From: Promethearchaeota archaeon
GTDB taxonomy: Archaea > Asgardarchaeota > Lokiarchaeia > Sigyniarchaeales > SOKP01
Length of the DNA: 64,000 bases
Direction: 5' to 3'
Assembly (NCBI GenBank): GCA_019057865.1
Contig: JAHLWP010000001.1
Location: 32,001 to 96,000 of the forward strand
The notes beneath the pieces were generated by a model. It had not been told where the DNA came from and made no database searches. It worked only from the letters and a program-made list of their open reading frames with translations. Numbering within the stretch: position 1 is the first letter of the stretch; each line of letters begins with the position of its first letter. This document shows positions 3,549 to 41,744 of this stretch, piece by piece. The translations under genes were made by a program, and so were the position numbers.

Positions 3549-3568
3549 AACTATAACCTAAAATAAAA
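3549..3568 (+). repeat. Left copy of 20-bp direct repeat AACTATAACCTAAAATAAAA
   Basis: Identical copy at 4655-4674; both continue into ATTGT(T)AAAA. Confidence 0.85.
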
Positions 3569-3628
3569 GAATTGTTAAAACCGTTAAAGTTAATAATTAA
3601 AAAATAAATAAAGTATAAGAGGATAAAA

Positions 3629-4579
3629 ATGGAACTTAAAGAAATAGCAAAGGATGTATATGCCTGCTTACAGGAGGATGGGGGACTTGGATGGAATAAC
3701 GCTGGGTTCGTGAATCTTGGTGGAGGGTTGGCTATTGATACCTTTTACGATTTGAACCGTACAGAGCAGATGATCGAGCTCTATAAAACGGTATCACCTA
3801 TACCAGCACGACGACTTGTGAACACCCATCACAATGGGGATCATACCTGGGGTAATCAGCTTTTCCAAGACTCTGAGATTATTGCACATCGCCTCTGCGC
3901 TGAAGAAATGGAAAAAGAAAAAAATCAAAATTTTCCTGGGTTATTCCAGAAATGGATACAAAATCCTGAGGCTTTTCCACCAGGAATTAAACAATTTGTA
4001 ATGGCATTAAGTCAGTTTGACTATTCGGGAATTGATCTTACGTTGCCAAATCATTTAATCGAAGATAGGTTTGATCTTGAACTTGATGGATACCATTGCC
4101 AACTTATTTATGTTGGCCCTGCACACACTTCCGGTGATCTAATCGTATATCTCCCTGAACATAAAGTCATCTTTGCTGGCGATATTGTCTTCTGGAAATG
4201 CACACCAATCGGTTGGGAAGGCACGCATGCTAAGTGGATTGAAGCATTAGATCTTGTGTTATCCTTTGAGCCCGAGGTTGTTGTGCCAGGGCATGGTCCT
4301 CTCTGTGGTGTCGATGAAGTCAAGGAGTTGCGTGCTTATTTCGAGTTTGTTTATTCTGAGGCCAAACGGTTTTTTAAAGAGGGACTTGATCCTCTCGAGG
4401 CATCTAAGAAGATCAATCTCGGACCTTATGCTGACTGGACCGAACCAGAGCGATTATTCTTTAATGTTAACAGGGCCTATCGAGAGTTCCGGAATGTAGA
4501 ACCCTGGGATGCACCCTTCAACGCATTAGATCTTTTCCGTAAATGCAATGAATTACGGATTCACTGGGATGGAATCTAA
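3629..4579 (+). CDS. Metallo-beta-lactamase-fold hydrolase (cyclase-like)
   Basis: THHNGDH, PAHT, FAGD and PGHG motifs; visibly more GC-rich than its neighbours. Confidence 0.9.
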   Translation: MELKEIAKDVYACLQEDGGLGWNNAGFVNLGGGLAIDTFYDLNRTEQMIELYKTVSPIPARRLVNTHHNGDHTWGNQLFQDSEIIAHRLCAEEMEKEKNQNFPGLFQKWIQNPEAFPPGIKQFVMALSQFDYSGIDLTLPNHLIEDRFDLELDGYHCQLIYVGPAHTSGDLIVYLPEHKVIFAGDIVFWKCTPIGWEGTHAKWIEALDLVLSFEPEVVVPGHGPLCGVDEVKELRAYFEFVYSEAKRFFKEGLDPLEASKKINLGPYADWTEPERLFFNVNRAYREFRNVEPWDAPFNALDLFRKCNELRIHWDGI

Positions 4580-4654
4580 AGTAGTGAATTACTGATAGAT
4601 TTTAGATCTTGAACTAAAATCTCTTAAAATTCCTACAAAGGATATTATATCACG

Positions 4655-4674
4655 AACTATAACCTAAAATAAAA
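4655..4674 (+). repeat. Right copy of the 20-bp direct repeat flanking the MBL gene
   Basis: Identical to 3549-3568. Confidence 0.85.
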
Positions 4675-4689: not shown

Positions 4690-5577
4690 TCAGAATTCAT
4701 AGCCGCACTTTTTACAAACGTGCTTCTTTGCGTACATTGGGATATGACCAACGTAGCTTAATACTTTGCTTTTATCCTCTACAGTTTTGATTTTATTCCC
4801 TACTGCCCCACACATTGGACAAGTTATACGTTCTTCGGAGGCGAATCCCCCTGCGCCAATATCTGGAGGTTTTAATTCATCTAATTCTGTTTCAACTTCA
4901 CTGAGTCGAGAAGTTTGTGCTTCTATTAATTTTTCTTTTTCACCCACAGACTCGGTGAGTTCCTGTAATTTAGTATCTTTCTGTAAAAGTAAATTATTTG
5001 CTTCAGTTAAATCTGAGTTTAATTTAGTGTTTTGTTCTTTTAATTCTTGATTTTCAGATGATATACGGCTAATATCTTCTTCATTAGCGGTGATCTTACT
5101 GTTAGCTTCATTTACTTGATTTTCTAAACTTGAAATTTTCTCTTTTGTAGCCTCTAGTACAGAGCTGATACTTGAAATCTTTTCTTCGGAAGATGAGGAT
5201 ACTTCTGATAATTCTGCTTCTCTTTCTTGTAAGAAACTTTCAATTTCATTTTTTTTAGTATTATTATCTGCTAACTCTTTTTTTGCAGCTTCTAATTTTG
5301 AACTTACATTGTTAATTGTATTCTCTCTCTCACTTGAAATTGTATTTGTTTGTTCAAGATTATTTTTAGTTTCTTCTAGAGAAGCTTGTGTTTGTTCAAG
5401 TTCTGCAGTGGTGGAACCTAATGTGTCATTAGTTGTAGTTAATTCAATTTTAGTCTCAGATAATTGTTTTTCTAAATCATTTACTTTAGCTCTTAAATCT
5501 AGTAAGACCTTACCCTCAACTTTTTGACTTTTATCGGGATGTTCTTCTGCTCTAGCCCAATCGATTGGCATATACAC
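4690..5577 (-). CDS. Long coiled-coil protein with C-terminal zinc ribbon
   Basis: Heptad-rich E/K/L body; CPMC...CKKC at the C-terminus. Confidence 0.8.
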   Translation of the reverse strand: MYMPIDWARAEEHPDKSQKVEGKVLLDLRAKVNDLEKQLSETKIELTTTNDTLGSTTAELEQTQASLEETKNNLEQTNTISSERENTINNVSSKLEAAKKELADNNTKKNEIESFLQEREAELSEVSSSSEEKISSISSVLEATKEKISSLENQVNEANSKITANEEDISRISSENQELKEQNTKLNSDLTEANNLLLQKDTKLQELTESVGEKEKLIEAQTSRLSEVETELDELKPPDIGAGGFASEERITCPMCGAVGNKIKTVEDKSKVLSYVGHIPMYAKKHVCKKCGYEF

Positions 5578-5718
5578 TCACTATTCTTTTATATTTTAAT
5601 TTTTTTTAATGTTTAATGTTTTTATTAATATATAAATTATAGTGTATTAAGTTTTTAACTATTTTTTACTTTGAGATTTTGAAAACCATTATAGTTTTGA
5701 CCAATTAATATAACCTTA

Positions 5719-6612
5719 GTGAATTATTACCAAAATGTGAAATGTGAAATGGAGAGCAAAAATGAACTACCTTCAGAAGGTGATGTTATATCAACATCCG
5801 GTGTATTTAAAACCCCATTTACATTAATAATTTTAGTACAGTTGTTTATTGGAGGTTTGGTAATAGTAAGTACAAATCTGCTATGGAATCAATCTTATTT
5901 TGCACTTACAGGTCATTATTATTTCTCTTTTGAACCTATTAATGATTGGGTAAGATGGATTTTATTACCACCGAGTATTTATGGAAATATCTTTTTATTT
6001 TGGATCTCGGTAGTGTTATCATCAGCATTAATATATAAAATTTTAAATAAAATCTATCCACCACGAGAAGGTGTTTTTAAAAGAGGAAGTAAGGAGTGGA
6101 AATATACTCATCGAAGGTTTTGGACTGCCTATTTTCCTATTTGGCTCACACGGGCTTTACCATTACCTTGGATGGATATTGCAACCTATAGATTTTTTGG
6201 AGTTCACATTGGTAAGAATGTTGTAGCTTATGAGGGGTATATTGATCCTGAACTTGTAGATATTGGTAATTTTACGATGACTTCAATAAATATCTGTATT
6301 TTTTCACATTTAATTTACCAAGATAAAATAATAATTAAAAGAGTAAAGATTGGAAAAGCTTGTGTAGTAGGCCCTCACACAGTAATAAGTCCTGGCACAG
6401 TTATGCAAGATGGAGCTATCCTTGGAGTTAATAGTTATACAAATATAGGACAGGAATTAGAAGGAAATTTAATTCATGTTGGGACTCCAGTAAGTATGAC
6501 CTTACCAATTCAATCCCTTGAAGAATCTCAAGAAAAGGCTAAAAAAATTAGAGAGGGAACTGGTGATAAACAACTTGATGGAGAAATAGAAAGTAAAAAT
6601 GGAGGCAAATAA
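5719..6612 (+). CDS. Membrane-anchored left-handed beta-helix (hexapeptide) acyltransferase-like protein
   Basis: Two hydrophobic N-terminal segments, PREGVF, G(V/A)xIGKN and hexapeptide repeats. Confidence 0.8.
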   Translation: MNYYQNVKCEMESKNELPSEGDVISTSGVFKTPFTLIILVQLFIGGLVIVSTNLLWNQSYFALTGHYYFSFEPINDWVRWILLPPSIYGNIFLFWISVVLSSALIYKILNKIYPPREGVFKRGSKEWKYTHRRFWTAYFPIWLTRALPLPWMDIATYRFFGVHIGKNVVAYEGYIDPELVDIGNFTMTSINICIFSHLIYQDKIIIKRVKIGKACVVGPHTVISPGTVMQDGAILGVNSYTNIGQELEGNLIHVGTPVSMTLPIQSLEESQEKAKKIREGTGDKQLDGEIESKNGGK

Positions 6613-6618
6613 GAATAA

Positions 6619-6645
6619 ATGTTTCAACCAGCGAGCTTAAAAGGC
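6619..6645 (+). pseudogene. Displaced original 5' end (MFQPASLKG) of the gene now at 10277-11014
   Basis: ATG TTT CAA CCA GCG AGC TTA AAA GGC begins 6 nt after the upstream stop, with GGAGG at 6601-6605; peptide matches MFSPASLKG at 10277. Confidence 0.85.
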
Positions 6646-6647
6646 AT

Positions 6648-9467
6648 TTATAAAGATCTAAAATAATCTCTAAAATGATATATTAGAGATATAGCTTCTT
6701 TCCCCATTTTATTTAAATAATATTTAGTAGGATTACTTTTGGTACCACTTTTGGTATTGATATATCGTGTAATTACATCCTTTCTTCTGTAAAAATAATT
6801 ACTTATGCTTGATGTAGTTATTCCCTTAAACCTTGATAGCTTATATAATGTTACATCATCCTCATTCTTTGAAATCTCATTTATAGCTGTTAAATATCTT
6901 TCAATACTACCTGTTGATTTAAAGCCTTTTTCTAAAGGTTCTTCAACTATAGATTTGTTATTATGAATAAGTTTGAAATTTCGATAGATAGAGTCAAAAT
7001 CCTCTTTAATTCTTCTCACTAGTTTTTTATCTTCATAAATTTCATTTAATAAATGAAGTTTCTTATAGTGGATAACTGAATGACAATTTGAACACAAATA
7101 ACCTCCTTTTTCTCGTTCCAGAATTGCTACGATTTCTGAACAGGAATATTGACCATAAAGATCTGATGCATTAACATTTTTTATGTTATCATCTGCATGA
7201 TTAAAATGAAATGCAGGAAGATGTTTTTTAGTTTGAAACTCCATACAAGTAGGACAATAGTTCCCAAAAAAATGTTCAATAATGAATCTCTTTTTTAAAT
7301 ATTTTATAATATTACCCCTAACTCTCTTTTTATCTATTTTTGTCCAATTTTTAGTTAATGGGAAATTTTCCACAGAGACTTTAATAAGAATGTGAATTAG
7401 TTCTACGGGTAAGGACAAAATTTCTTCCCAAGTAATTAAATAAGAGAAGTAGTTAAAGTAACGATCGTGTAGAATATGGTGATGATTCCTACAGATCAAC
7501 TTTACATCTTCTAATTCCACTATTCTTACAATTTCTTCCAAAACATTTGGATCAGATCGATTCTTAGTAAAAAGATTATATAACGCTCCCGCTGTAAATT
7601 GAGTTTCCTTTTTATCGGAATCGTGATGGAATTCTAAAGCATCAAGTCTAGTAATATCCGTATTTAAAACAAATCGTTCTTTTAGACATTCGGGACATTT
7701 AAGCTTTCCAGTTTTAAAATACTTCCCGTTATAAATATTTTTCATAACGAATACTTTTAACTTATTACCAACGATTTTTTCATAATCTTCATGTCTATAT
7801 TCATTTCCCCCATCAAAAAGCCCTTGAGAATTTGAACGAATTTGGAAAAAATCAGGATATTTTTCTTTAAGATAATCATATATTTCAATTACATTGTAAT
7901 AGAATTTCTTAGGGGTTTGAAGAAAGTTTACATCTTTTTCTTCCAAGAGAAAATCAACTACGTATTTAACTATCAGATGAGCCCGTATTCTTTTATGAAT
8001 CCTGCTTGAATTAATCAAATGTTTGACAACTTCTACCAAATCAGAAAGAAATTTGATAAAAGTATCATAATATTGATCTAATATTGTTCGAAGTACATCA
8101 AAATCATTTTGTGATAAATCTTTGGGAAGATCAATATTCATGATAATATTATCTCTTATTCTATCAACAATTTCTGATGTTAAAACCTCTTTATCCTTGA
8201 CTACGCTAAATATATATGCTGAAATAATATTTCTTATTCTGTTGAATCCAGGATATGAAGAAAATCGAAATTCAATTCTTGGATATAAATGCTCGAAGTA
8301 TTTTTTATAGTAACTAGAGATATCGCTAGGTGATTTTATTTCTACTGAAGCTAGTTTAGCGATCCCTTTTCTAGTGATTTTCGGCATGTTTTTGTTTGAT
8401 AAAGCTACAGTATAAACAATAATTGCAGCAATCTTCTCCGTATTTGCATTTTTTGGGATTGTAAATTCATTACTTTTAGCTCGTGAAATAAAGTTTTCTA
8501 ATATCTCGATTGCTATTGAGTTAATTAGTTCTTTTTGACGCTGTGTGCATTCAATTAAATTAATCAAATTTTTTAGATGATTTGTAACTTTTTGTTTAAA
8601 ATTAGGGATGATGAGAGGTTTTTCATTTCTAAGAATCAATTTATCTATTATTGATTGAACATCTTTAATTATTAATTCTTCACTTAATCCAGCCTCTAAA
8701 AACTCATAATAAGCTGAAAAAAGCTCAAAAGCAGATATGCCTTTTATCACAATTGAGGGTGATTTTCCCAATAATAAGGTACAAGTTCCTGCATGAAGAA
8801 TCTTGTCATAATGCTTTTTGATTGTTAAAAGAGATTCATTAGAGGTTTTGTTCAATTGTTTAATATCATTCAAATGTCCTTTTAACCATTCTTTTAGAAC
8901 AGAGATTAATTTATCAGAAAATGGTGGAAACTCATGAATAGAGAATATTTGTGTTTTTTCTCGGAGTATTTGAAGGAAGTTAGTATATTCATCCGCAATC
9001 TTTTTTAATCCTAACTGCAACATTCTGTAGTTTTTCTTTGTATTTACTTCAGATAATACTAATTTTCTTTGTTTTCTACTTAACATTTTCATATACCCCC
9101 TTGATAATCCATCCATATATTTAGAAATGACTTGAGCACCCCTTCCAATAGAATTAGAATACATCCAACTATTTATAAAAGCCGATGCTTCATTGGGCAC
9201 AAATCCTTTAATTTTATCAATCAAATTTTTAGGGGGAAGGCTAGATTTATCAAAGAGACATGCGTTTACAGCTTGGATGAAATTTCCGATAAATTCATCA
9301 ACAAAAACCAAACTAATATTGTGTTTTGAACATTTTGGATACTTTCGAAATCCGAAGACCCCTAATTTCAGAGGTTTTACCTTTTTTAGATGCGTGCATC
9401 CAAAATAAGGACAAATGGCTATTCTTTCTTCTTTTATTGATTTTCTACTTACTTTACTTTCAATCAT
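6648..9467 (-). CDS. 939-aa protein: N-terminal Zn finger, TFIIB-like helical repeat, two HNH-like nuclease modules, C-terminal winged HTH
   Basis: CPYFGC..CSKH; KIAAIIVY..ITRKGIAKLASV; CPEC...ALEFHH...LICRNHHHILH; CPTC...FHFNH...LCSNCHSVIH; VTLYKLSRFKGITTSSIS. Confidence 0.75.
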   Translation of the reverse strand: MIESKVSRKSIKEERIAICPYFGCTHLKKVKPLKLGVFGFRKYPKCSKHNISLVFVDEFIGNFIQAVNACLFDKSSLPPKNLIDKIKGFVPNEASAFINSWMYSNSIGRGAQVISKYMDGLSRGYMKMLSRKQRKLVLSEVNTKKNYRMLQLGLKKIADEYTNFLQILREKTQIFSIHEFPPFSDKLISVLKEWLKGHLNDIKQLNKTSNESLLTIKKHYDKILHAGTCTLLLGKSPSIVIKGISAFELFSAYYEFLEAGLSEELIIKDVQSIIDKLILRNEKPLIIPNFKQKVTNHLKNLINLIECTQRQKELINSIAIEILENFISRAKSNEFTIPKNANTEKIAAIIVYTVALSNKNMPKITRKGIAKLASVEIKSPSDISSYYKKYFEHLYPRIEFRFSSYPGFNRIRNIISAYIFSVVKDKEVLTSEIVDRIRDNIIMNIDLPKDLSQNDFDVLRTILDQYYDTFIKFLSDLVEVVKHLINSSRIHKRIRAHLIVKYVVDFLLEEKDVNFLQTPKKFYYNVIEIYDYLKEKYPDFFQIRSNSQGLFDGGNEYRHEDYEKIVGNKLKVFVMKNIYNGKYFKTGKLKCPECLKERFVLNTDITRLDALEFHHDSDKKETQFTAGALYNLFTKNRSDPNVLEEIVRIVELEDVKLICRNHHHILHDRYFNYFSYLITWEEILSLPVELIHILIKVSVENFPLTKNWTKIDKKRVRGNIIKYLKKRFIIEHFFGNYCPTCMEFQTKKHLPAFHFNHADDNIKNVNASDLYGQYSCSEIVAILEREKGGYLCSNCHSVIHYKKLHLLNEIYEDKKLVRRIKEDFDSIYRNFKLIHNNKSIVEEPLEKGFKSTGSIERYLTAINEISKNEDDVTLYKLSRFKGITTSSISNYFYRRKDVITRYINTKSGTKSNPTKYYLNKMGKEAISLIYHFRDYFRSL

Positions 9468-10141
9468 TCAGTAATTTTCACCATTCTCTTCTTTTTCTTT
9501 TTTATTTTTTTATCTTCCATTTGTATTAGATTCGAAATTTCTCCTTCTAATTGTAAATAATTCAGTTTTAATTCAAGATAAAAATCTGAAAATGAAGAAA
9601 AAAATACTGATTCACAGCTACATAATAGACCTGCAATCTGAATTATTACATTTAATAAGCGAGGATGCCGATGTATTTCAAGTTCTGAGAGAATATGAAG
9701 AACCCTCCATATTTTTTTACTTAGATTCCTTATCTCTTTCAAATGTTTTTTATCAATTTCGAGTTGTTTGTTTTTAACATTTTCCATTAGTTTTATTATC
9801 ATTTCTGCGATTTTTCCATCAACAATTCCAATCTTTTTTGATAGAGTAGTGTACTGAGAAAATAACGATGTAAGCTCTCTTTCCCATTTTTTAATAGGAT
9901 TTGGTGCTCCAATAGGTTTTGTTCTATTAGATTCAGATCTACTAGATTTTGAGAATCTCATGCGTATAATCTCACATTTAAAATTCAAAAAAGAGCGTAA
10001 TTGCCTTGAAAGTTCATTGATTCGTTCAGATCCCTCCAGAGAGTACCAGTCAAGAAATTCTGAGCTTTCCCCATTTCCTAATAAAAAAAGATTATCAGAA
10101 ATATCATAGATATCTATCAAATCATCAGTATGATTTGTCAT
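9464..10141 (-). CDS. Hypothetical helical protein, translationally coupled to the HNH gene
   Basis: 225-aa ORF with a 4-nt ATGA overlap at 9464-9467. Confidence 0.7.
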   Translation of the reverse strand: MTNHTDDLIDIYDISDNLFLLGNGESSEFLDWYSLEGSERINELSRQLRSFLNFKCEIIRMRFSKSSRSESNRTKPIGAPNPIKKWERELTSLFSQYTTLSKKIGIVDGKIAEMIIKLMENVKNKQLEIDKKHLKEIRNLSKKIWRVLHILSELEIHRHPRLLNVIIQIAGLLCSCESVFFSSFSDFYLELKLNYLQLEGEISNLIQMEDKKIKKKKKRMVKITE

Positions 10142-10230
10142 AAAAATAAATATTTCTCGTTATATTTAAATAAAAAAAAAGCATTCATTTTCTGATTTAT
10201 AATTCCAATAAATTTTTACTTGAGAATCAC

Positions 10231-10238
10231 TTATATAA
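10231..10238 (+). promoter_or_regulatory. Candidate TATA box supplied by the insertion for the restored downstream gene
   Basis: TTATATAA about 30-40 nt upstream of the replacement start codon(s) at 10268/10277. Confidence 0.4.
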
Positions 10239-10276
10239 TCTTTAAAATAATTGTTTCATAATTCCATGTGATTTTA

Positions 10277-11014
10277 ATGTTTTCTCCTGCTAGTTTAAAA
10301 GGTGAATCGCCAGTTCCTATCGATGAAAGAATTCGCAAAAAATATTTTATTCTTTATTTGGTAATCATTATTCTTAGTTTTATTCCTTGTTCATTATTTG
10401 AGTATTTTTATTTCATATCTTTATGGAAAGAACAATTTTACATAATTTTTCTTTTGTTATTGCCTTTTAATATATTTATTTTAATTTATATCCTCCAATT
10501 AAGTGCGATTTTATTTTCATCGTTATTTTTAACATTAATTAAGATTATATACTCACCGAAAGAGGGTGTTTTTAGACGCAACATTGAAGATAAGGATTAT
10601 CTTTACTGGAATTTAAGAAATATTGTGAAAAAATGGCCGTTGTTTATTACAGCTTCAAATCCTTTTCCTTGGCTAAAAAATCGTTTTACATTGAGGTTAT
10701 TTGGAGTGAAAATTGGAAAAAAATGTATATGCGATAATGCCTGGATTTCTTCGGAGTTTGTAACAATTGGTAAAAATGTTATTATTGGTATGAATTCAAC
10801 AGTCATTACTTTCGGGATTGAAAAAGATAATTTTATTCTTAAAAAAATTATTATTGAAGATGATGCACTAATAGGAGCTAAATGTGTGTTATTACCTGGT
10901 ACATTAATTAAAAAGAATGCTAAATTATCAGCACATTCCTATACAAATTATGATGATATTTTAGAAGAAAATTTAATTTATGCTGGTCATCCTGCAAAAT
11001 TAAAGAAAAAATAA
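10277..11014 (+). CDS. Membrane-anchored hexapeptide-repeat acyltransferase-like protein (paralog of 5719-6612)
   Basis: TM segments, PKEGVF, GVKIGK and hexapeptide repeats, AGHPAK. Start placed at ATG 10277 by comparison with the displaced copy at 6619. Confidence 0.8.
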   Translation: MFSPASLKGESPVPIDERIRKKYFILYLVIIILSFIPCSLFEYFYFISLWKEQFYIIFLLLLPFNIFILIYILQLSAILFSSLFLTLIKIIYSPKEGVFRRNIEDKDYLYWNLRNIVKKWPLFITASNPFPWLKNRFTLRLFGVKIGKKCICDNAWISSEFVTIGKNVIIGMNSTVITFGIEKDNFILKKIIIEDDALIGAKCVLLPGTLIKKNAKLSAHSYTNYDDILEENLIYAGHPAKLKKK

Positions 11015-11020
11015 AGGATT

Positions 11021-12616
11021 ATGATAACCGAAAAGAGTTTAACAATGGGAACCTCAGAAAAAGTTAGTAAAAAGAAAAGATTGGTAATTGTTTCAGATAC
11101 TCACATGACTCGTTGGGAAGGAGCGTTTAACCTTCACGCGTATAATGTAGGAATTGAGAAAATTAATAAAATAAAAGATGTGTCTCTTTTCCTTCATTTA
11201 GGTGATATAACTCATACGGGAACTTTATTAGAGTATGAATACGCTATGGAACAATTCAAAAAGTTTAAACCTATTTCAAAAGCTCCACTTATGTTTCTAA
11301 TTGGCAACCACGACAGTCTTAACGTTGGATATTTATTATTCGAAGAAATGATTGGTAGGAGACATTATGAGTATGAAGATGATGAATTATATGTGATTGG
11401 GGTTGATAGCACAAAACCAGATTTACCAGGTGGTATTATCCATCATAATATAAGAGAAGCTGTTAGAAAAAGACTAGAAAAACCAGAAAGGGAAGATAAA
11501 TTTAAAGTAGTGTGTTTTCATCACCAACTCATTCCGATACCCAATACAGGAAAAGAAAGATCAGCTATAGATGATTCAGGAGATATGCTTAAAATGTTAA
11601 TCGATGCTAAAGCAGATTTAGTGCTAAATGGGCATAGACATATTTCAAATCTATATGCTGTTTCCAGTAGTGAAAAAGATTTATATATTTTTAATGCCGG
11701 AACTTTTAGTTGCAATAAAACAAGATATAGAGAACTTTTTACCTATAGTATTATAGATATCTTAGGAAATAAAATCAATTTTAAAATTTTACCTATATTA
11801 GATTCAAATTTTAAGAAAGAGATACATAGGGAGGTTAATTATTATCTCCCTTTAGAAATTGAAATGGATCAAAAACCATTATGCAAATTTATACAATTTT
11901 CAAATTCTTTAATTTCTGCAGACTCAGAAGAGAAATTCACTAATTTAGATAAGGCAATAGATAAGATAAACAAAATAAAAAATATAGATTTAGTTGTACA
12001 TACAGGTAATTTATCTAAAAATAGCTATAAAGAAGAATTTATTATTGCTAAAGAAAAACTAAACAAATTGATTCATCCTCTTTTAGTGGTACCTGGTTTC
12101 ACTGATTCAAAACCTCCCGCATGGGATTATTGGATGAATTATATCGGTTCATTGGATCCTTTATATGAAAATGATAAAATTTATTTTCAGGGAATTAATT
12201 CTACTACTCCGGATTCTAATGAAGGATTTATAGGTCGAAAAAGGCTAAATAGATTCATAGATAAAGTATTAAAACTAAGCCATCAAAAAATATTTGGGGT
12301 GTGTTGTTTTCATAGTTTAATTCCTACACCGCTTTCAGTATGGAGAACAGAGTTAATTGATTCTGGAGATGTTCTCTCTCAATTCGCTCGTACACAAGTA
12401 GATATTGTATTAAATAATACACCAAGTATATCTTTTAATGCAAAGATTGAGAATACAATATTTTCGAATGGAGGAAATCTTGAAGTGGAACGTTTCGATA
12501 ATTCTTTTATTGAAATTGATATTTACAAGAAGGGATTTGTTGTTTTAAAAGAGCATAATTTAAGAACTGGTGAAGTTAAAGTAATTGGTAACTATTACAT
12601 TACAATTTTAATTTAA
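11021..12616 (+). CDS. Tandem calcineurin-like metallophosphoesterase (second domain degenerate)
   Basis: Domain 1 has SDTH, GD, GNHD, HH and GHRH; in domain 2 these read SNSL, GN, GFTD, HS and NTPS. Confidence 0.85.
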   Translation: MITEKSLTMGTSEKVSKKKRLVIVSDTHMTRWEGAFNLHAYNVGIEKINKIKDVSLFLHLGDITHTGTLLEYEYAMEQFKKFKPISKAPLMFLIGNHDSLNVGYLLFEEMIGRRHYEYEDDELYVIGVDSTKPDLPGGIIHHNIREAVRKRLEKPEREDKFKVVCFHHQLIPIPNTGKERSAIDDSGDMLKMLIDAKADLVLNGHRHISNLYAVSSSEKDLYIFNAGTFSCNKTRYRELFTYSIIDILGNKINFKILPILDSNFKKEIHREVNYYLPLEIEMDQKPLCKFIQFSNSLISADSEEKFTNLDKAIDKINKIKNIDLVVHTGNLSKNSYKEEFIIAKEKLNKLIHPLLVVPGFTDSKPPAWDYWMNYIGSLDPLYENDKIYFQGINSTTPDSNEGFIGRKRLNRFIDKVLKLSHQKIFGVCCFHSLIPTPLSVWRTELIDSGDVLSQFARTQVDIVLNNTPSISFNAKIENTIFSNGGNLEVERFDNSFIEIDIYKKGFVVLKEHNLRTGEVKVIGNYYITILI

Positions 12617-14477: not shown

Positions 14478-14532
14478 AATCAATATGTACGCAAGTATTA
14501 TAACCGCAATTACAAAAAGGGGTCGGATTTGA
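14478..14532 (+). repeat. Partial duplicate of the GTPase 5' end forming a 15-codon upstream ORF
   Basis: 14478-14492 equals 14532-14546, and 14492-14519 equals 14588-14615; ATG 14485 to TGA 14530-14532 encodes MYASIITAITKRGRI. Confidence 0.8.
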
Positions 14533-14538
14533 ATCAAT

Positions 14539-15477
14539 ATGTACGCTAGGAAGGTAGTTTTTTTAGGACTCGACTTTGCAGGTAAAACAAGTATTATAAC
14601 CGCAATTACAAAAAGATTTGGTTTTGAAGAAGAGGTAGCAAGATTAAAACCAACTCGAAGAGTTGCTAGGGATACTTTTAGATTTTTAGGATTAGAATTT
14701 TATAGAATGGATTTTGGGGGTCAAGCCCAATACAGAGAAGATTATTTAAAAAATCCAGCAAAATATTTAAGCGGAACAGATTTGATTTTTTATGTTATTG
14801 ATGCCCAAGATTATAACAGATATATAGAAACCATAGATTATCTAGACCAACTTCTGCTTTTTTTTAAAGAGGAACAAGATTATCCTCCTATATGTGTGTT
14901 ATTCCATAAAATGGACCCTCAATTCGTCAAAGATAGAGTCATTAATCGAAAAATTCTTACGTTAAAGCAAGCACTTACGAGATATTCACATGATTTTGAT
15001 ATTTTTTTCTTTGAAACGACTATATTTGACATCAAATCGATAATGACAGCGTTTTCAAGTGGCCTATCAATGGTATTTGAAAAGATGGAAATAGTTTCAA
15101 ATTTATTTTCAGAGATAAGTAGGAATTACAACTCAATTTTAATTGCATTATTTGATGCAAAAGGGATAACAATTGGAGAATATTATAAGCCTCATCTACA
15201 ATTAAAAGAAAAAATAAAAATCTATGAAATTTATATTAAGTTACAAAAGCAGATTGTAGCAGAAAATAGAACTTTACTTGAATTTTCTGATAAATTTGAT
15301 AGTGGAATTAAATTTTCTGGCGTAATTGAAGTTCTTAATTTTGGCAATTTATATTTTTATTTATTATTTATAATACAAGAGGATGAAACTGATTTGGAAA
15401 AAACAGTTGATATTTTAAATAAAATTGAGTCGGCTAAACCCCAAATGGAGAATTTGATTTTACAGATTATCCAATAA
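14539..15477 (+). CDS. Rag/Gtr-like small GTPase with C-terminal roadblock-like domain
   Basis: GLDFAGKT, DFGGQ and HKMD motifs; C-terminal alpha/beta extension (LIALFDAKGITIG). Confidence 0.8.
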   Translation: MYARKVVFLGLDFAGKTSIITAITKRFGFEEEVARLKPTRRVARDTFRFLGLEFYRMDFGGQAQYREDYLKNPAKYLSGTDLIFYVIDAQDYNRYIETIDYLDQLLLFFKEEQDYPPICVLFHKMDPQFVKDRVINRKILTLKQALTRYSHDFDIFFFETTIFDIKSIMTAFSSGLSMVFEKMEIVSNLFSEISRNYNSILIALFDAKGITIGEYYKPHLQLKEKIKIYEIYIKLQKQIVAENRTLLEFSDKFDSGIKFSGVIEVLNFGNLYFYLLFIIQEDETDLEKTVDILNKIESAKPQMENLILQIIQ

Positions 15478-34975: not shown

Positions 34976-36322
34976 TTAAAAATAGATTTTAGCCCCTTTT
35001 TCTTCAAGTTTATTTAATAATATTAAGGATTTAGTTAGATTATTTTCTGATAAATACAATTCTTTTAATTTAGTGAGATATTTAAGTGATTCTGGTAAAT
35101 TATTCAATCTATTTCTAGATAAATATAAATATTGTAGAGAAGTGAGATTTCCAATTTTATCTGGAATGCTATTTAATTTATTATCACTTAAGTTCAATAC
35201 TTTTAAAGATTTTAGGGAAGTAATTTCCTCAGGAATAGCTGTTAATTCATTTTTTTCTAAATCTAATACCTTAAGAGCAGTAAGTTTTCCTATTGAACTT
35301 GGAAGGTCTCTTATTTCATTCCAACTTAAGTTAAGGTCCTCTAATGATTTGAGACAACTTAATGTTTCTGGAAGATAATGCAATTTATTATCATGTAAAT
35401 TAAATTTTCTAAGTGAAGATAGATTACCAATAGTATCTGGCAATGCTTCTATCTGATTAAGTCTTAAGTTTATTCTTTCTAATTTAGAGAGAGAACCAAT
35501 ATTTTTAGGGAGCGTCCTAAGTTCATTTTTCCAGAGTAAAAACTCCTTTAGAGAAATAAGTGATCCTATTGCTTCTGGTAACATTTTAATATTATTTACA
35601 TTTAGATTTAAACTTTCAAGTGAAGTTAAATTACCAATCCATTCTGGAAGAGCTGTTAATTGATTATATCTAAAGATTAAGGTTTTTAATGATGAAAGAT
35701 ATTTAATAGGTTCTGGAATTTCAGTTAAACCTTTAAAAATGAAATCAAGTTCGATAAATTTACAATTTTCTATTTTAAATTTAAGCCGCCAGTAGGTTTT
35801 TTTTAATAATGACAATGTAAAATAGTTGATTAAAATTTCAGCTAACTCTTTACTAGTGAAATTTTCTATTGAGTTTACTTTAGATAATTGTTCAAGGCTA
35901 ATTCTAAATTCTCTTTCTCTAATTTTTTTAACTTCACTAAGTAATATTTGCTGATTATTTTCTACCATATTTTTTATGATTTTTATTAGAGTTGTATGGA
36001 TTATGTTTAAACAAGAAGGGGATTCTTCATGAATGAGTGCCCATTTCATTGGTTCTAATGCTCTATCGATATATAGATTTTTCAATATCAATGCAGCTGA
36101 ATTTCGTACTTTTTCGCTAGAATCAGAAATTAATAAATTTTCTAAGAATCTAAAAGATTTGTTATCATCAATTTTAATTTTTTCGAGCCCTTGTATACTC
36201 TCAACTCTTAATTTATCACTTTCACTGTTGTCTATTAAAGAAATTAATAATTTGGCAGCAGAGTGCTTATCTAAATTATTTTTTAGATATTCTTTGTGAA
36301 TTTTTGAGGGAGTTAATTCCAT
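34976..36322 (-). CDS. HEAT-repeat plus LRR protein
   Basis: Same N-terminal module as 24915-25883; about ten 23-aa LRRs (LPexIGxLxxL). Confidence 0.9.
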   Translation of the reverse strand: MELTPSKIHKEYLKNNLDKHSAAKLLISLIDNSESDKLRVESIQGLEKIKIDDNKSFRFLENLLISDSSEKVRNSAALILKNLYIDRALEPMKWALIHEESPSCLNIIHTTLIKIIKNMVENNQQILLSEVKKIREREFRISLEQLSKVNSIENFTSKELAEILINYFTLSLLKKTYWRLKFKIENCKFIELDFIFKGLTEIPEPIKYLSSLKTLIFRYNQLTALPEWIGNLTSLESLNLNVNNIKMLPEAIGSLISLKEFLLWKNELRTLPKNIGSLSKLERINLRLNQIEALPDTIGNLSSLRKFNLHDNKLHYLPETLSCLKSLEDLNLSWNEIRDLPSSIGKLTALKVLDLEKNELTAIPEEITSLKSLKVLNLSDNKLNSIPDKIGNLTSLQYLYLSRNRLNNLPESLKYLTKLKELYLSENNLTKSLILLNKLEEKGAKIYF

Positions 36323-36394
36323 TTTGAATTGAAAAATGAATAATTTTTTTTTATAAAATCATTTTAAGTATACTTAGAACTTTATCTATATACC

Positions 36395-38296
36395 TCAGAG
36401 ATACATCTCTAAAGACAGTTCTTTAATTTTTTCTTGCATAGGGATTCCTCTTATTTTATCCCATCCACGCTCATCATAGTAATCATCAAGTAATTGATTT
36501 GCAACTTCAGGTGTTATTATTGTTTCACCAAAAAAATCTTGGAATTTAAGGATATTTTCTCCAAATTTTAAAGGTTTAAACCATTCTTCTGGGAATTTAT
36601 CATCTTTTCGTGAAAATCCTTCTTTAATATTCATAATTTTTAATAAATTCCATGTTCTTTCAGCAGCTATTCTCAAATCATCTAATTGCATATTAAATCC
36701 AGTTACTGCATTATAAATATCGGTAACTAATTCTAAACCATAAAATCGATTCATCTGGGCTCTTGCACATAATCCTAAAGAGGTTAATACCGTGTACCAA
36801 TCTTCGGAATATCTTGTTAATCTTCCTACATTTACCACCATTTTTTTTAAGGGAGGAGTAAATAACCTTCCTATAGCAGAGTTAGGAACTCCCATTCGAT
36901 CAAAATGCATTTTAAATTTTCCTATTGACCCTCCAGCACCAAGATAGGTTGGAGAGCCCCCAGATGCAACATGAGCTCCTTTAGGGTTCACAACTTGTTC
37001 AAATTCCATAGTTCCAAGACGTAAAAGGCGAGGTTCGAAAATAATATCCAAGCCTTTTACAGTTAACATTTCGTTTTCAACTGATTTATATGTTTCAGCT
37101 AATCTTTTCCACCCATCAGCTAAGATATTTCCAAATCCTTTTCTATATACTATCATTTCTATTAATTGAACTAACGTTCGGTAATCGCTTTTCCACTCTA
37201 TTCCCGTATTCTCTTTTGTTAATATTCCTTTCTCATATAAATGAGTGCAAAACTTTAAGAGAGAGGTTATTGTTAATGAGTCTAATCCATATCTACTCAC
37301 TAAATCAAATGACTTTATAGCTTCATCATAAGTATTTAAATCATCAAGTGTGAACATTAAAAAAGGATTAATAACTGATGACGTATAATTTATCAAACCT
37401 TTAAAATTGCCTTCTTGGAGTTCAAGAATATCTTTATCACCCATAGGACATGAAGGGCATGCTATACGACGTTTCTTTAATTTTTTAAGATAAATTCTCT
37501 CACTACATTGTCTTGCCTTTTTATGCTGCCCTGAAGCCTTTAAGATCATTCCAACGGGCAAACTTCTTAACATTCCTAATTCATGCCATGATTCTCTTTG
37601 AGGATATTTCCTAATTCGTTCAAAAAGTTTTCTATATAATTGATTAAATTCTTTAGGATTTGCTATAGAAATCCCCCTACTTCCCTTCGTAACTATTGCT
37701 TTTAAATTTTTAGAACCCATAACTGCTCCAAGACCACCTCTACCAAAAGTAGATGTTTTATCAATTAAAGCCAAAGAACCATAAACTAAATTTTCACCTG
37801 CTTGGCCAATTGCTATAACTCCAGATTCAGAGTACTTCTTTTGCAAAAAATTAGTAGATTCTACGATATCTTTTCCCCAAATGTCACTCGCATCAATAAG
37901 TTCTATATGTTCGTTTAATATCACTAAATATACAAGGTCTTCAGCTTTACCAGAGATAATTATATGATCAAATCCAGAATGTTTTAAATTAAATCCAAAA
38001 CTCATACTTCCGCATGAATAGGCGATTGCCCCTGTTGTTGGGAACTTAGTTGAAGCAACTGTTCTGGAGGCACCTGGAGTGATTGTCCCAACTAAGGGAC
38101 CTGCTCCAATTATTATTACATTTTCAGACGATAATGGATCAATTTTGGGTTTAATTAAATCAGCTACGAGTTTAGTATTTATTCCAAGTCCTCCAATAAA
38201 TTGTTTAATATCATCAACATTTTGTTTAATAATAGATATTTTATCTACAGTTAAATCTATCTTAAGAATATTACCAGTATACCCTTTCCAGTCCAT
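36395..38296 (-). CDS. Tungsten-type aldehyde:ferredoxin oxidoreductase family protein
   Basis: GYTGNILKIDL, IGQAGENL, GRGGLGAVMGSKNLK, CPSCP and YYDERGWD motifs. Confidence 0.92.
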   Translation of the reverse strand: MDWKGYTGNILKIDLTVDKISIIKQNVDDIKQFIGGLGINTKLVADLIKPKIDPLSSENVIIIGAGPLVGTITPGASRTVASTKFPTTGAIAYSCGSMSFGFNLKHSGFDHIIISGKAEDLVYLVILNEHIELIDASDIWGKDIVESTNFLQKKYSESGVIAIGQAGENLVYGSLALIDKTSTFGRGGLGAVMGSKNLKAIVTKGSRGISIANPKEFNQLYRKLFERIRKYPQRESWHELGMLRSLPVGMILKASGQHKKARQCSERIYLKKLKKRRIACPSCPMGDKDILELQEGNFKGLINYTSSVINPFLMFTLDDLNTYDEAIKSFDLVSRYGLDSLTITSLLKFCTHLYEKGILTKENTGIEWKSDYRTLVQLIEMIVYRKGFGNILADGWKRLAETYKSVENEMLTVKGLDIIFEPRLLRLGTMEFEQVVNPKGAHVASGGSPTYLGAGGSIGKFKMHFDRMGVPNSAIGRLFTPPLKKMVVNVGRLTRYSEDWYTVLTSLGLCARAQMNRFYGLELVTDIYNAVTGFNMQLDDLRIAAERTWNLLKIMNIKEGFSRKDDKFPEEWFKPLKFGENILKFQDFFGETIITPEVANQLLDDYYDERGWDKIRGIPMQEKIKELSLEMYL

Positions 38297-38541
38297 TAAT
38301 CAACAACCTCCTTATATTCCAATGCACCATAAAGACAATGTTGAGCACACTGCCCACAGTGAAGGCAACTTTCTAAAAAAGAAATTTTTGGAGATAATCC
38401 ATATTTATTTTCAATTATTATATTTGCTTCATAAGGATTAAATTGCTTTTTATTTATATAAGAGCACCATAATTGGCAAATAATACAATCTGTACACCTA
38501 TCCTCATTTACTATAATCTCAACATATTTTTTTTTTACCAA
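38296..38541 (-). CDS. 4Fe-4S ferredoxin (AOR partner)
   Basis: CTDCIICQLWC and CLHCGQCAQHC; overlaps the AOR start. Confidence 0.85.
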   Translation of the reverse strand: MVKKKYVEIIVNEDRCTDCIICQLWCSYINKKQFNPYEANIIIENKYGLSPKISFLESCLHCGQCAQHCLYGALEYKEVVD

Positions 38542-38666
38542 GATGATTCAAATCTTAAAAGGTATTAAGGATTTTATATATTAATTGAAAAAATTGAAAT
38601 AATGAATTATAATTAAATTTTTATGCTTATAAAATTTTATTTTAGCCAATATTTAAGTAAATTAAA

Positions 38667-40157
38667 TTAAATTTTGATTATTAGCCCCCTTTTTCTCTCT
38701 AATCGTCTCAGTGGCTCTGGAATATTTTTAATTTTATTAAAATTTAAATCTAATATTCTAAGTGAAGGGAGTAAGGCAATTGATTCAGTTAATTGTTCAA
38801 GTTGATTTCCCCATAGATTTAATTCTTCTAATGAGGATAATTCTCCAATCCATTCAGGAAGAAAAGTGAAATTGTTCCAACTTAAATTAAGTTTTTTAAG
38901 AGTTTTTAAATTCTGAAATGATTCTGGCAAGCTAGAGAGTTGATTATTCCGTAAAATCAAATTTTCTAATGAAGTCAAGTTCCCTATCGAATCTGGTAGT
39001 TTAGTAATATCATTATCATATAAATGTAAGCTTTTCAGAGATTGAAATGAAGAAATCCAATTAGGAAGTTTCTTTATATTATTTCCACTCATACCTAATT
39101 TTTCTAATAAAGCAAGAGCTTTTATGCTGGTTGGAATTTCAAAAAAGTTATTCCAACCTAAATCAAGTTCGTTAATTGAATCGTTCAACCTAAATTCAAT
39201 TGAATTTAATTTATTTCCATGTAGATCTAAATTCTTAAGTGTTTTAAGAGATGTTATTGATTTAGGGATTTCATTCAGCATATTATTTCTCAAATTTAAT
39301 GTTTGGAGTAGTGATAAATTACATAAAGAATCAGGAAGAAGCCTTAATCTATTTGATTTTAAATTTAATTTTTTTAAGGATTTTAATTTGTTTATAGATT
39401 CTGGAAGTCTAATTAATTTATTATAACTTAAATCTAAAGATATAATTGAATCTGATTCATTTGAGATTTCTGATAGTTTTATTAAATGATTAAACCTTAG
39501 ATCAAGAACCTTAAGTTGCTTAAGAGAAAGTATAGAGTCAAAAAAATTTGTTAAAAAAATACCTTGTGGATCCACATTAGTTAAATCTAATTTAGTAATA
39601 TACCCCAAATTGTTAAATTCAAACTTTATATAACCAAACTTAATTTTTAAAAATGAGATGAAGTAATAATTAATTAATAGTTCTGCAAGATCTTTATGAG
39701 AAAAACTCTCAATCTTTTTTCTTTCAAAAACATCTTTTAAATTATATTTATATTTTTGATTATACAGGTTGTGTAATTTCTCAACTAAAATTGATTTAGA
39801 TTTCTTGTTATTAATTTCAGATAAAGTAGAAATTATTGTTATTAGACACATTAATGATGTTTCATTTTCAAGAGCCCATTTCATCGGTTCTAATGCTCTT
39901 TCTAGAAAAAGAGTTTTTATCAGAGATGCCGCTAAATTTCTTATATTTTCATTTGAATCAGAAATTAACAGATTCTCCAAAAGTTTATAAACTTTATCAT
40001 CCTTCGCCTGAATTTTTTCTAAAATCTTAATGCTCTCTAATCTGGTATCAACATTATCCGTATTATCAATTAAGGTAATTAATATTTCAAGTGCTGAATT
40101 ATAATCTAAATCTTTATTCTTTAAATCCTCATATATTGCTTTTGGAGTTAAAGGCAT
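38667..40157 (-). CDS. HEAT-repeat plus LRR protein
   Basis: MPLTP start, LISDS..IRN, EPMKWAL and a long LRR array. Confidence 0.9.
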   Translation of the reverse strand: MPLTPKAIYEDLKNKDLDYNSALEILITLIDNTDNVDTRLESIKILEKIQAKDDKVYKLLENLLISDSNENIRNLAASLIKTLFLERALEPMKWALENETSLMCLITIISTLSEINNKKSKSILVEKLHNLYNQKYKYNLKDVFERKKIESFSHKDLAELLINYYFISFLKIKFGYIKFEFNNLGYITKLDLTNVDPQGIFLTNFFDSILSLKQLKVLDLRFNHLIKLSEISNESDSIISLDLSYNKLIRLPESINKLKSLKKLNLKSNRLRLLPDSLCNLSLLQTLNLRNNMLNEIPKSITSLKTLKNLDLHGNKLNSIEFRLNDSINELDLGWNNFFEIPTSIKALALLEKLGMSGNNIKKLPNWISSFQSLKSLHLYDNDITKLPDSIGNLTSLENLILRNNQLSSLPESFQNLKTLKKLNLSWNNFTFLPEWIGELSSLEELNLWGNQLEQLTESIALLPSLRILDLNFNKIKNIPEPLRRLERKRGLIIKI

Positions 40158-40205
40158 TTTTTCTAATTTGTAGGTTAGACTAAATTCAAAAATGTAATAA
40201 GAAAA

Positions 40206-41744
40206 TTAAATTCTTTCAATCATCATTCCACCTAATACTATTGGACCACCAGTAGAATTATAAATTTTTTCTGCTCTTTTTAATTTAGATTGATTTTCTG
40301 AATAAATCCTAAAGACTAAATCACCATCTTTTATTCTTGCACCTTGTTTTTTTATAACTTCTATTCCAGAACTTTTTGAAAAGGGACACCCTGCAGCCTT
40401 AGCAATCTGATTAATTAATGCATTATTTATACCAGTTATATGTCCTCCCTTAGTGGCATGAAACTCCTTTATATACGGACCTAACTTGATTTCTTCAGGT
40501 TTTATATTAGGGTCCCCTCCTTGAACTCCTATAATTTTTTTCATTGTATCATAAGCCTTACCAGATTGTAATATTTCTTTAGCCAATTTTTGTCCTATTC
40601 CCTTTTGAGCTTTACCCCCCATTTCAAGAAGAATTCCTGCTAAATCAGTTGCTTTTTCTATTAAAGAATTAGGTCCGGCGGAATAGTCCATTAACAGTGT
40701 AAGCGCCTCCTTAGCTTCTAATGCAGGTCCAACAGCATGGCCAATTGGTTGATGAGCTAGAGTTAACGCGCATTCTGCTTCTACCCCAACATTCTTAGCT
40801 ATTTCTTTGAAAATATAAGCGAAATTTTTTCCGTCATTTGGGGTAGGAAATTTAGTCCCTGGACCAACAGGGATATCTAAAACTAATTTTTTTACTCCCA
40901 TACTTATTTTTTTAGCAAGAATAGATGGAATCATTAAACCTACAGGATCCATATGCAGGGGTCGTTCAATTTCTATTAAGATATTATCTGCAGGAGCTAT
41001 ATCGAGGGCTCCTCCCCAGACTACACAGGCTTTTTCTTCAGATATAATTTTCTTTACTTCTTCTGAATCAAAGATAACCGGGGCTAAAACTTCCATTGAA
41101 TCTGCAGTTCCAGATGGTGATGTTATTGCTCTTGTAGATGTTTTAGGGATTATTAAACCCGCAGTTGCCACTACTGGTACTATAATAAGAGACACTTTAT
41201 TACCTGGAACCCCTCCTGTTGAATGCTTGTCATATACATCTGGACCAAAATCAAATGTTTCTCCACTTCTTGCTTCTGCTAGGGTAAGAGCGGTCATTTC
41301 TTCGTTATCCATCCCCAGAATATTTACACTTGTTATAAAAGCTGCTAGATCAATTCGAGAAAGAAGTCCAGTAGCTGCATCACTAATAATCTTGTTGAGT
41401 TCTTCACTATTTAGTTTATTACCTTTAATTTTCTTTTGAATAAACCTAAAGGAATCTGGTAATTCTGCAGGTTTTATCGATAATACCATATTATCTTTAA
41501 TCTCTCTTTTCTCTTTTAAAATATCCAATGAAATACCAATCTCTCCTGGACTCACAATGGAATTGGAATAATCTATTTGCAGTATACCAATCCAGTATCT
41601 TTCTTCTAATGATTTTGATCCTATATTTTTAACTATTAGGCGATCTCCGGCTTTTTGCCCAAGAACTTGAGCATCCTTTACATTAATAATAATATCCTTC
41701 TTATTTCCTGTTTCATAATTGATTTTTTTTACCTTTAGCTTCAT
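40206..41744 (-). CDS. deoA: AMP phosphorylase (thymidine phosphorylase family with N-terminal extension)
   Basis: DKHSTGGVPGNK, PKTSTRAITSPSGTAD and GPALEA motifs. Confidence 0.92.
   Translation of the reverse strand: MKLKVKKINYETGNKKDIIINVKDAQVLGQKAGDRLIVKNIGSKSLEERYWIGILQIDYSNSIVSPGEIGISLDILKEKREIKDNMVLSIKPAELPDSFRFIQKKIKGNKLNSEELNKIISDAATGLLSRIDLAAFITSVNILGMDNEEMTALTLAEARSGETFDFGPDVYDKHSTGGVPGNKVSLIIVPVVATAGLIIPKTSTRAITSPSGTADSMEVLAPVIFDSEEVKKIISEEKACVVWGGALDIAPADNILIEIERPLHMDPVGLMIPSILAKKISMGVKKLVLDIPVGPGTKFPTPNDGKNFAYIFKEIAKNVGVEAECALTLAHQPIGHAVGPALEAKEALTLLMDYSAGPNSLIEKATDLAGILLEMGGKAQKGIGQKLAKEILQSGKAYDTMKKIIGVQGGDPNIKPEEIKLGPYIKEFHATKGGHITGINNALINQIAKAAGCPFSKSSGIEVIKKQGARIKDGDLVFRIYSENQSKLKRAEKIYNSTGGPIVLGGMMIERI

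Follow-up and report, generated by a model that had tools for sequence, protein, structure and literature searches.

Why should the first nine codons of an acyltransferase gene stand twice on one chromosome, in two different spellings, with two genes in the opposite orientation between them? The question is raised by a 64,000-nucleotide (nt) stretch of DNA from a Promethearchaeota archaeon of the Lokiarchaeia (contig JAHLWP010000001.1, positions 32,001 to 96,000), which is called the window throughout. The answer favoured here is that the 3.7-kb cassette between the two gene starts is a homing element with a free-standing endonuclease, which spreads by replacing the ends of genes. From sequence comparisons, this reading is given a probability of about 0.8. 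Coordinates are positions in the window unless a contig or locus is named. The genome to which the window belongs (G000) has 4.26 Mb; genomes of congeners carry G-numbers, and L-numbers denote examined loci or contigs. The parts of the locus are as follows.

5719..6612, + strand: gene Y, the upstream acyltransferase, native host DNA; hexapeptide repeat and membrane N-terminus, with Pfam Hexapep below the cut-off
6619..6645, + strand: the stub, the displaced native 5' end of gene Z; nine codons (MFQPASLKG) in the native position, 6 nt past the Y stop
6648..9467, − strand: gene for a 939-residue nuclease (P0001), recognized by HNH-type motifs and PHROG profiles
9464..10141, − strand: gene for a 225-residue partner protein of no known family; its stop and the nuclease start share 4 nt
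10142..10276, no strand: the leader, element-borne, between the divergent partner gene and gene Z, with the TATA-like TTATATAA
10277..10315, + strand: the patch, an altered replacement of Z codons 1-13 (MFSPASLKGESPVP) with Q3S, D10E, T13V and synonymous changes
10277..11014, + strand: gene Z, the restored intact acyltransferase; 245-residue open frame, Pfam Hexapep_2 at 2e-10

The two gene starts and the native allele

The left copy (6619-6645) reads ATG TTT CAA CCA GCG AGC TTA AAA GGC. Its frame stays open for six further codons, until the stop at 6664-6666, and reaches into the final part of the 939-residue gene. The right copy (10277-10303) reads ATG TTT TCT CCT GCT AGT TTA AAA GGT and continues as the intact gene Z. 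No direct repeat in the region ranks above this pair of 27-mers, which are 78% identical at a spacing of 3658, and the longest identical stretch common to both junctions is 8 nt (TTAAAAGG). The peptide PASLKG occurs only at these two places in a six-frame translation of the 4.26-Mb genome. A repeat search of the region gave no convincing terminal inverted repeat. Both insert proteins were compared with Pfam and no family was matched; hence no recombinase, integrase or transposase family was detected. Rfam intron and ribozyme models had no match within 5500-11200, and a tRNA search found no tRNA at the locus. The nuclease gene lies on the strand opposite to Z and outside the Z frame.

A first-pass annotation of this DNA, made from the letters alone, had described both junction sequences as they are and had put 3658 bp of antisense DNA in the split operon. 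It had also listed a TATA-like box in the insert, which is TTATATAA at 10231-10238 (39-46 nt ahead of the Z start codon), and had seen no recombinase, transposase or terminal inverted repeat, an absence borne out by Pfam and the repeat search. Its measurements need some adjustment. The nuclease stop, put at 3 nt from the left junction, occupies 6648-6650 and is 2 nt from the last base of the stub. The insert was said to end at 10303, but the altered patch runs four codons past the duplicate (D10E, T13V) and the foreign DNA ends at ~10315. The peptide is indeed kept at eight of nine residues, although the differences are not confined to third positions as claimed: at codon 3 all three bases are exchanged (CAA to TCT, Q to S). 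In the same way the gene start is recoded, but only partly by synonymous changes, since three amino acids differ in an otherwise invariant peptide.

Which of the two starts is native can be judged from genomes with an empty site. The Z start MFQPASLKGDSPTP is present in 27 genomes of the same genus, where the 27 orthologues of Z begin MFQP(A/V)SLKGDSPTP(I/V)DE (V at codon 5 in 1/27); elsewhere in the protein, conservation over the genus is only ~70%. An empty allele of this kind had been anticipated in the first-pass annotation, and in congeners MFQPASLKG is fused straight to DSPTP, the element-bearing gene having ESPVP. The E10 or V13 scar was seen in 0/27 empty alleles. Gene Y directly precedes Z, with no insert, in all six loci mapped in full, and a single-copy phosphoesterase gene downstream of Z, with orthologues in 47 of 53 congeners, serves as a synteny anchor. 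The left stub is the native Z start in its native place, because its peptide equals the orthologous start and stands at the same syntenic position. For the same reason (orthologous native start, native position) a remnant of a deleted tandem paralogue was ruled out as the origin of the stub. The acyltransferase family itself has 18 matches in the genome, often in tandem, and five related paralogues have a loosely similar N-terminal peptide.

The limits of the foreign DNA are set by comparison with two congeners, G012 and G030. Gene Y is 92-94% identical in nucleotide sequence to theirs over its whole length, and the Z protein is 92-94% identical to its orthologues. Along the locus the flank identity is 92-95% up to 6645 and resumes from ~10316. 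The 135-nt leader and the insert have no counterpart in the empty allele and no similarity to the native Y-Z spacer. At the patch, nine differences from G030 fall within 39 nt, followed by none in the next 21 nt; the first 45 nt of Z are 80% identical to the empty allele, with later windows mostly at 89-100% and an overall value of 94%. Because flank identity is high outside, and leader and patch lack a native counterpart, the foreign segment extends from 6646 to ~10315. Gene Z is thus a chimera of an element patch and a native remainder.

Spread and decay at the gene Z site

The occupied allele has been found in the window, in an independent metagenome contig with the same structure (L135), and at L120-L125 and L137. 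Between the window and L135 the element has 15 mismatches in 3668 nt (0.41%) and the flanks have 39 in 1466 nt (2.66%), so that the element is ~6-fold less diverged (Fisher p=3e-11). Leader and patch are identical in the two. The stubs differ at 3 nt, and two of the L135 variants (GCA, AGT) match G012/G030; the stub thus comes from the recipient and the patch from the donor. As the divergences of element and flanks disagree and the stub is recipient-specific, the element with its patch was shared far more recently than the host genes diverged. Discordant divergence of this kind is the signature that horizontal spread by double-strand-break repair would be expected to leave.

More distant relatives of the element, with nucleases 59-83% identical, occupy the same Z site. 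For example, L120-L123 carry a 75% identical nuclease there among flanking genes that are only 61-76% identical, and have the same MFSPASLKGESPVP start. The leader is similar over most of its length in copies whose nucleases are only 75-83% identical. The point at which the patch gives way to native sequence varies: it lies after codon 13 in the window and L120 and at about codon 9 in L124 and L137, both of which start MFSPASLKC and go on with the native DSPTP. A varying switch point fits conversion tracts rather than a fixed attachment core, and such a core was rejected on this ground.

Reduced forms are also present. In L137 the nuclease stands alone, as a 656-residue HNH-only protein equivalent to residues 289-939, with no partner gene and with a 10-codon stub. 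L130, L132 and L133 are decayed relics that consist of a stub, ~220 nt (the nuclease 3' end and the leader) and an altered start. In L131, L134, L136 and L138 the altered start follows directly after Y with no element. Taken together, the alleles at the Z site look like the stages expected of a homing cycle.

The L120 locus contains two stub-like remnants in a row (~7964-8079, − strand in that locus), a decayed (L)FQPVSLKS and a shorter AGTTTAAAGGAG, the latter abutting the nuclease stop. They might record two successive invasions of one site.

The nuclease family and its other targets

The nuclease is a protein of several parts. An N-terminal module of zinc-ribbon and helical character (the N-module, residues 1-275) is followed by a TFB-cyclin-like repeat (~280-400), two zinc-HNH units (~585-665 and ~735-800) and a winged helix (~850-939). 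An alignment of 23 homologues has the invariant motifs CxxC...HH...CxxHH and CxxC...H...CxNCH; the residues concerned are C591, C594, H614, H615, C659, H662 and H663 in the first unit and C738, C741, H757, C792, N794, C795 and H796 in the second. The structural model has the strand-strand-helix arrangement at 611-614/656-667 and at 753-757/788-799. PHROG HNH families were matched by P0001 (E 1.8e-6) and by 14 of the 23 homologues (best E 5e-12). On these grounds the two units are assigned to the HNH (beta-beta-alpha-metal) superfamily. P0001 had no Pfam match to Intein or LAGLIDADG. Neither protein of the pair (P0001, P0002) had a significant match in Pfam or NCBIfam, or any in PADLOC, the PDB sequences or the ESM Atlas. 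The homologues of P0001 are metagenomic and without an informative name, and the few that are labelled with an organism are Promethearchaeota.

The AlphaFold model of P0001 has a mean pLDDT of 82; residues 560-939 folded without an alignment reached a pLDDT of 34. The TFB/TFIIB-cyclin-like repeat matches 5iy6_M (Z score 12.0) and 1ais_B (Z score 11.5) with a root-mean-square deviation of 2.1 Å over 95-99 residues, and the MarR/DtxR-like winged helix has a Z score of ~10, all values in the range in which helical folds may match by chance; a weak SloR profile match supports the winged helix. Foldseek of the full model against the PDB gave only spurious helical-repeat matches.

A search of 1.84 billion representatives yielded 98 clusters with the N-module, a narrow family, and its place in the protein is nearly always the N-terminus. 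In 61 diverse proteins that carry it, the remainder matched LAGLIDADG_3 (8 proteins), HNH_3 (5), GIY-YIG (5) and intein splicing domains (2), as well as many PHROG homing-endonuclease families, so the family is tied to homing-endonuclease domains in keeping with the nature proposed in the first-pass annotation. A partner gene lies directly upstream of every N-module nuclease examined and overlaps its start. The exception is L114, where the nuclease has 1919 residues and the upstream open reading frame of 202 residues gave no partner match. Nucleases without the N-module, among those examined, had no partner match beside them.

The window genome holds four two-gene copies; at three further places only the nuclease part is matched. 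A diverged partial duplicate of a host gene end flanks three of the four two-gene copies, and several copies elsewhere, as had been predicted. The annotation's picture of a two-gene selfish homing element is supported; its restriction to gene starts does not, since 3' ends of 44-194 codons and one 65-codon 5' segment are replaced too. The latter is on contig C60, where the duplicate is the start of an iolM-like zinc dehydrogenase (65 codons, 65% amino acid identity). The upstream stub and its promoter are native there, matching G012/G030, and the stub ends at AGATGTGG. On contig C87 the element lies after a fucose-isomerase-like gene, of which the last 194 codons are present twice (75% identity). 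This gene is a mosaic: the expressed 3' part is foreign, and the displaced fragment and the downstream flank are native-like. The orthologue in G012 has no element, but ~400 nt of it are 100% identical to the foreign 3' part before native sequence resumes, which looks like a scar of loss or conversion. Other duplicates comprise 187 codons in G064 (same site as C87), the last 67 codons of a lipoamide-dehydrogenase-like gene in G024 (beyond the nuclease, 85% amino acid identity), 44 codons of a helicase gene in L127, and 14 codons in G019.

Among elements at one target the nuclease parts resemble each other most closely, also in copies that lack N-module and partner. This was seen at four targets, namely the iolM-like gene (L129), the fucose-isomerase-like gene (G064), gene Z (L137) and the lipoamide-dehydrogenase-like gene (G012, G024), and it locates the choice of target in the C-terminal part of the nuclease.

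Two of these targets deserve a separate description. The fucose-isomerase-like gene is a hot spot, occupied or altered in C87 at 35472-40908 (L082 2472-7908), in G012:C35 (L116) and in G064:C40 (L115). Its last ~190 codons are replaced and the native 3' fragment displaced in the window genome and in G064. In G012 the gene begins like that of G064, and a native-like 5' stub lies 2.3 kb upstream of it. The stretch of ~400 nt that G012 shares with the foreign 3' part of C87, in the absence of an element, suggests loss by recombination between the repeats. At the lipoamide-dehydrogenase-like gene, G012:C59 (L118, 6054-13690) and G024:C11 (L119, 5723-9716) carry different HNH-type nuclease genes, which follow the target gene in convergent orientation.

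The restored iolM-like gene of C60 contains a further insert, of 29 nt, exactly where the stub ends and inside the CGICGSDVH zinc-ligand motif (contig C60 ~11290-11320, L083 ~5290-5320, − strand; also L129 ~9330-9360). On one side it adjoins the 5' segment brought by the element and on the other the native remainder of the iolM-like gene, and its removal restores the native frame and the CGICGSDVH motif. The insert can be drawn as a canonical bulge-helix-bulge, with a 4-bp helix (GUGG/CCAU) between two AAU bulges and a 9-bp inner stem. The minimum-free-energy fold recovers the inner stem of 9 bp and the AAU bulge on the 5' side, together with an outer helix of 5 bp; the second bulge is absent. 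In L129 (P0017), a distinct element copy at the same target, the 29 nt are kept with a changed loop and a U-A pair of the stem altered to U-G. The insert looks like a tRNA-type mRNA intron that splits a homing site, and the C60 paralogue would link homing nucleases to tRNA-type micro-introns.

A wider proposal can be offered only tentatively, with the odds somewhat against it. Partner and 275-residue N-module may together make up a 'homing chassis' that is portable and peculiar to Loki-type Asgard archaea, and into which nucleases of at least three unrelated classes (HNH, LAGLIDADG and GIY-YIG) have been plugged; such elements would continually rewrite the ends of housekeeping genes and, at some targets (the iolM-like gene of C60), would shield themselves by a 29-nt bulge-helix-bulge intron exactly at the cut site. 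If this were true, homing nucleases would be the engine that spreads such introns into the protein-coding genes of Asgard archaea.

Some other features of the window were noted in passing. At 14478-14615, directly upstream of a small GTPase gene, the start of that gene is present a second time in near-identical form; it is fused to an internal piece of 28 nt, and the 42 nt coding for the P-loop are left out. Its DNA is identical and not altered, and it looks like a different phenomenon from the Z stub. The coiled-coil gene beside Y is conserved in the loci of the six relatives. A metallo-beta-lactamase-fold gene (3549-4674) had no match above 45% identity in the same loci, stretches that may stop short, and it may be a separate small insertion.

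The proposed homing cycle, its rivals and known systems

In the proposed cycle the 939-residue double-HNH protein, probably with its 225-residue partner, would cut the highly conserved start of Z at about codon 9-10 in element-free chromosomes; the cut is placed there because the stubs of the window and L137 end at these codons. Homologous recombination with a copy that bears the element would then repair the break: the left end (Y and Z codons 1-9) would pair with Y and the stub, and the right end with Z downstream of the patch. Nuclease, partner, leader with promoter, and an altered 13-codon start that is presumably resistant to cutting would all be copied in. Z would still work, its old nine codons would be stranded as a stub, and the allele would be immune. 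Cleavage of the native but not of the altered site, the action of the leader as promoter of Z, and the roles of the partner and the N-module are inferred.

Several observations weigh against this account. The low divergence of the element could partly reflect recombination from strain to strain and not homing driven by the nuclease. P0001 matches no Pfam HNH model, so that its assignment is one of motifs and PHROG profiles. The left junction is not uniform, with a decayed stub and ~95 nt in L120, no stub in L125 and another left flank in L124. Flanking duplicates are lacking at C58 and its G012 orthologue, L111, L118, L129, C83 and C65, copies that may have decayed or been inserted in a different mode.

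Strain recombination is also part of an unlikely alternative in which the cassette is a defence or toxin-like nuclease system that entered once, by homology-facilitated illegitimate recombination, and was then passed on vertically or by ordinary exchange, its own nuclease playing no part. A constant N-module with a variable C-terminal nuclease and a coupled small gene does resemble polymorphic nuclease systems, and between the window and L120 element and host are diverged alike. There is, however, no PADLOC match; the element is ~6-fold less diverged than its flanks in the L135 comparison; same-site elements have the most similar nuclease part at four targets even without N-module and partner; and the E10 or V13 scar that repeated loss would tend to produce is absent from all 27 empty alleles. 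The TFB-cyclin-like and winged-helix folds, and the four two-gene copies kept with intact frames, could also be taken to mean that a former homing element is now immobile and domesticated in a host role such as regulation, with the duplication as a fossil. This is very unlikely in view of the very recent sharing between diverged strains, the invariance of the catalytic HNH residues, and the relics elsewhere, which speak of decay and not of retention. Finally, a site-specific recombinase encoded elsewhere might move the cassette as an integrative island with a short core (TTAAAAGG) and a replacement gene end. The layout fits, in that a complete gene and a diverged partial copy stand at opposite sides and the two junctions share 8 identical nt. 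But no integrase was detected in the element, whose proteins match no Pfam family, and the altered patch continues for four codons past the supposed core, where host sequence would be expected. In addition, the switch point differs among copies, the same site is held by related nucleases with or without accessory genes, and the family is fused to three homing-nuclease classes; the idea is very unlikely.

Other classes of element were considered and rejected. A DNA transposon, insertion sequence or casposon is contradicted by the lack of a terminal inverted repeat, by flanking repeats only 78% identical with the peptide kept at 8/9, and by the lack of a detected transposase. The nuclease is not intron- or intein-borne, given no Rfam intron match and an orientation antisense to Z; a tRNA target is excluded, with no tRNA at the locus; and aloposons, with giant genes and tRNA targets, are unrelated.

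Full-text literature searches found no published case of gene-end-replacing homing elements in archaea. With homing by gene-end replacement as the reading, comparative data would offer a near-complete homing cycle on an archaeal chromosome, with sensitive, invaded, recently spread, decayed and resistant element-free alleles. Conserved housekeeping genes of Asgard archaea would become chimeras as selfish nucleases swap their ends, which matters for gene phylogenies that bear on eukaryote origin. The nuclease family, without a description in Pfam or NCBIfam, combines a constant module and a partner with interchangeable homing-nuclease domains, and may be a set of natural, long-site, presumably rare-cutting enzymes.

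Similar strategies occur in other systems. In Allomyces macrogynus, a mitochondrial mobile open reading frame reportedly creates a gene hybrid at atp6, a case ascribed to Paquin et al. in 1994. In fungal mitochondrial elements of this type, the nuclease gene is said to arrive with a foreign adjacent gene end and to leave the old end as a pseudogene, much as at gene Z; unlike the present element they are, by the same accounts, organellar, encode LAGLIDADG or GIY-YIG nucleases, and replace 3' ends. Phages 21 and e14 integrate into icd with a substitute 3' end. They too are mobile elements that make good the protein-coding gene they enter by supplying a diverged version of its end, although they depend on an integrase and an identical core, neither of which was found here.

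T4-like phages carry free-standing homing endonucleases of HNH, GIY-YIG and other types, such as mobE and the seg genes (PMC2790892). As proposed for the present case, an intergenic nuclease gene spreads there by co-conversion with flanking markers that make the donor resistant. The C60 mini-intron, which interrupts the presumed target, is like collaborative homing by a nuclease and an intron. The phage cases usually lack a displaced gene-end duplicate, however, and the C60 intron is a 29-nt bulge-helix-bulge and not a group I intron.

The closest parallel is provided by the WHO elements at FBA1 in Torulaspora and Lachancea yeasts (Coughlan et al. 2020, PMC7282813). In the WHO model a sensitive allele is cut, the ends pair with a displaced fragment and with the gene beyond a resistant segment, and the repair brings in both the nuclease gene and the resistant gene end (PMC7282813). 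The likeness extends to a free-standing endonuclease gene that homes into a conserved housekeeping gene (PMC7282813), to replacement of the gene end by a resistant version with the old end pushed aside, where it marks the cut and serves as a homology arm, to a chimeric target gene with discordant divergence, and to decay of elements and fragments into relics. The machinery is different. WHO proteins are described there as intein-derived fusions of LAGLIDADG and zinc-finger domains, related to HO and at work in the meiosis of diploid yeast, whereas the element in the window is archaeal and encodes a separate partner beside a double HNH nuclease that carries a TFB-like repeat and a winged helix. 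In the window copy, moreover, the exchanged 5' end has no more than 13 codons and comes with a presumed promoter. No homology to the WHO proteins was expected or found: the element works like WHO but is not a member of the WHO protein family.

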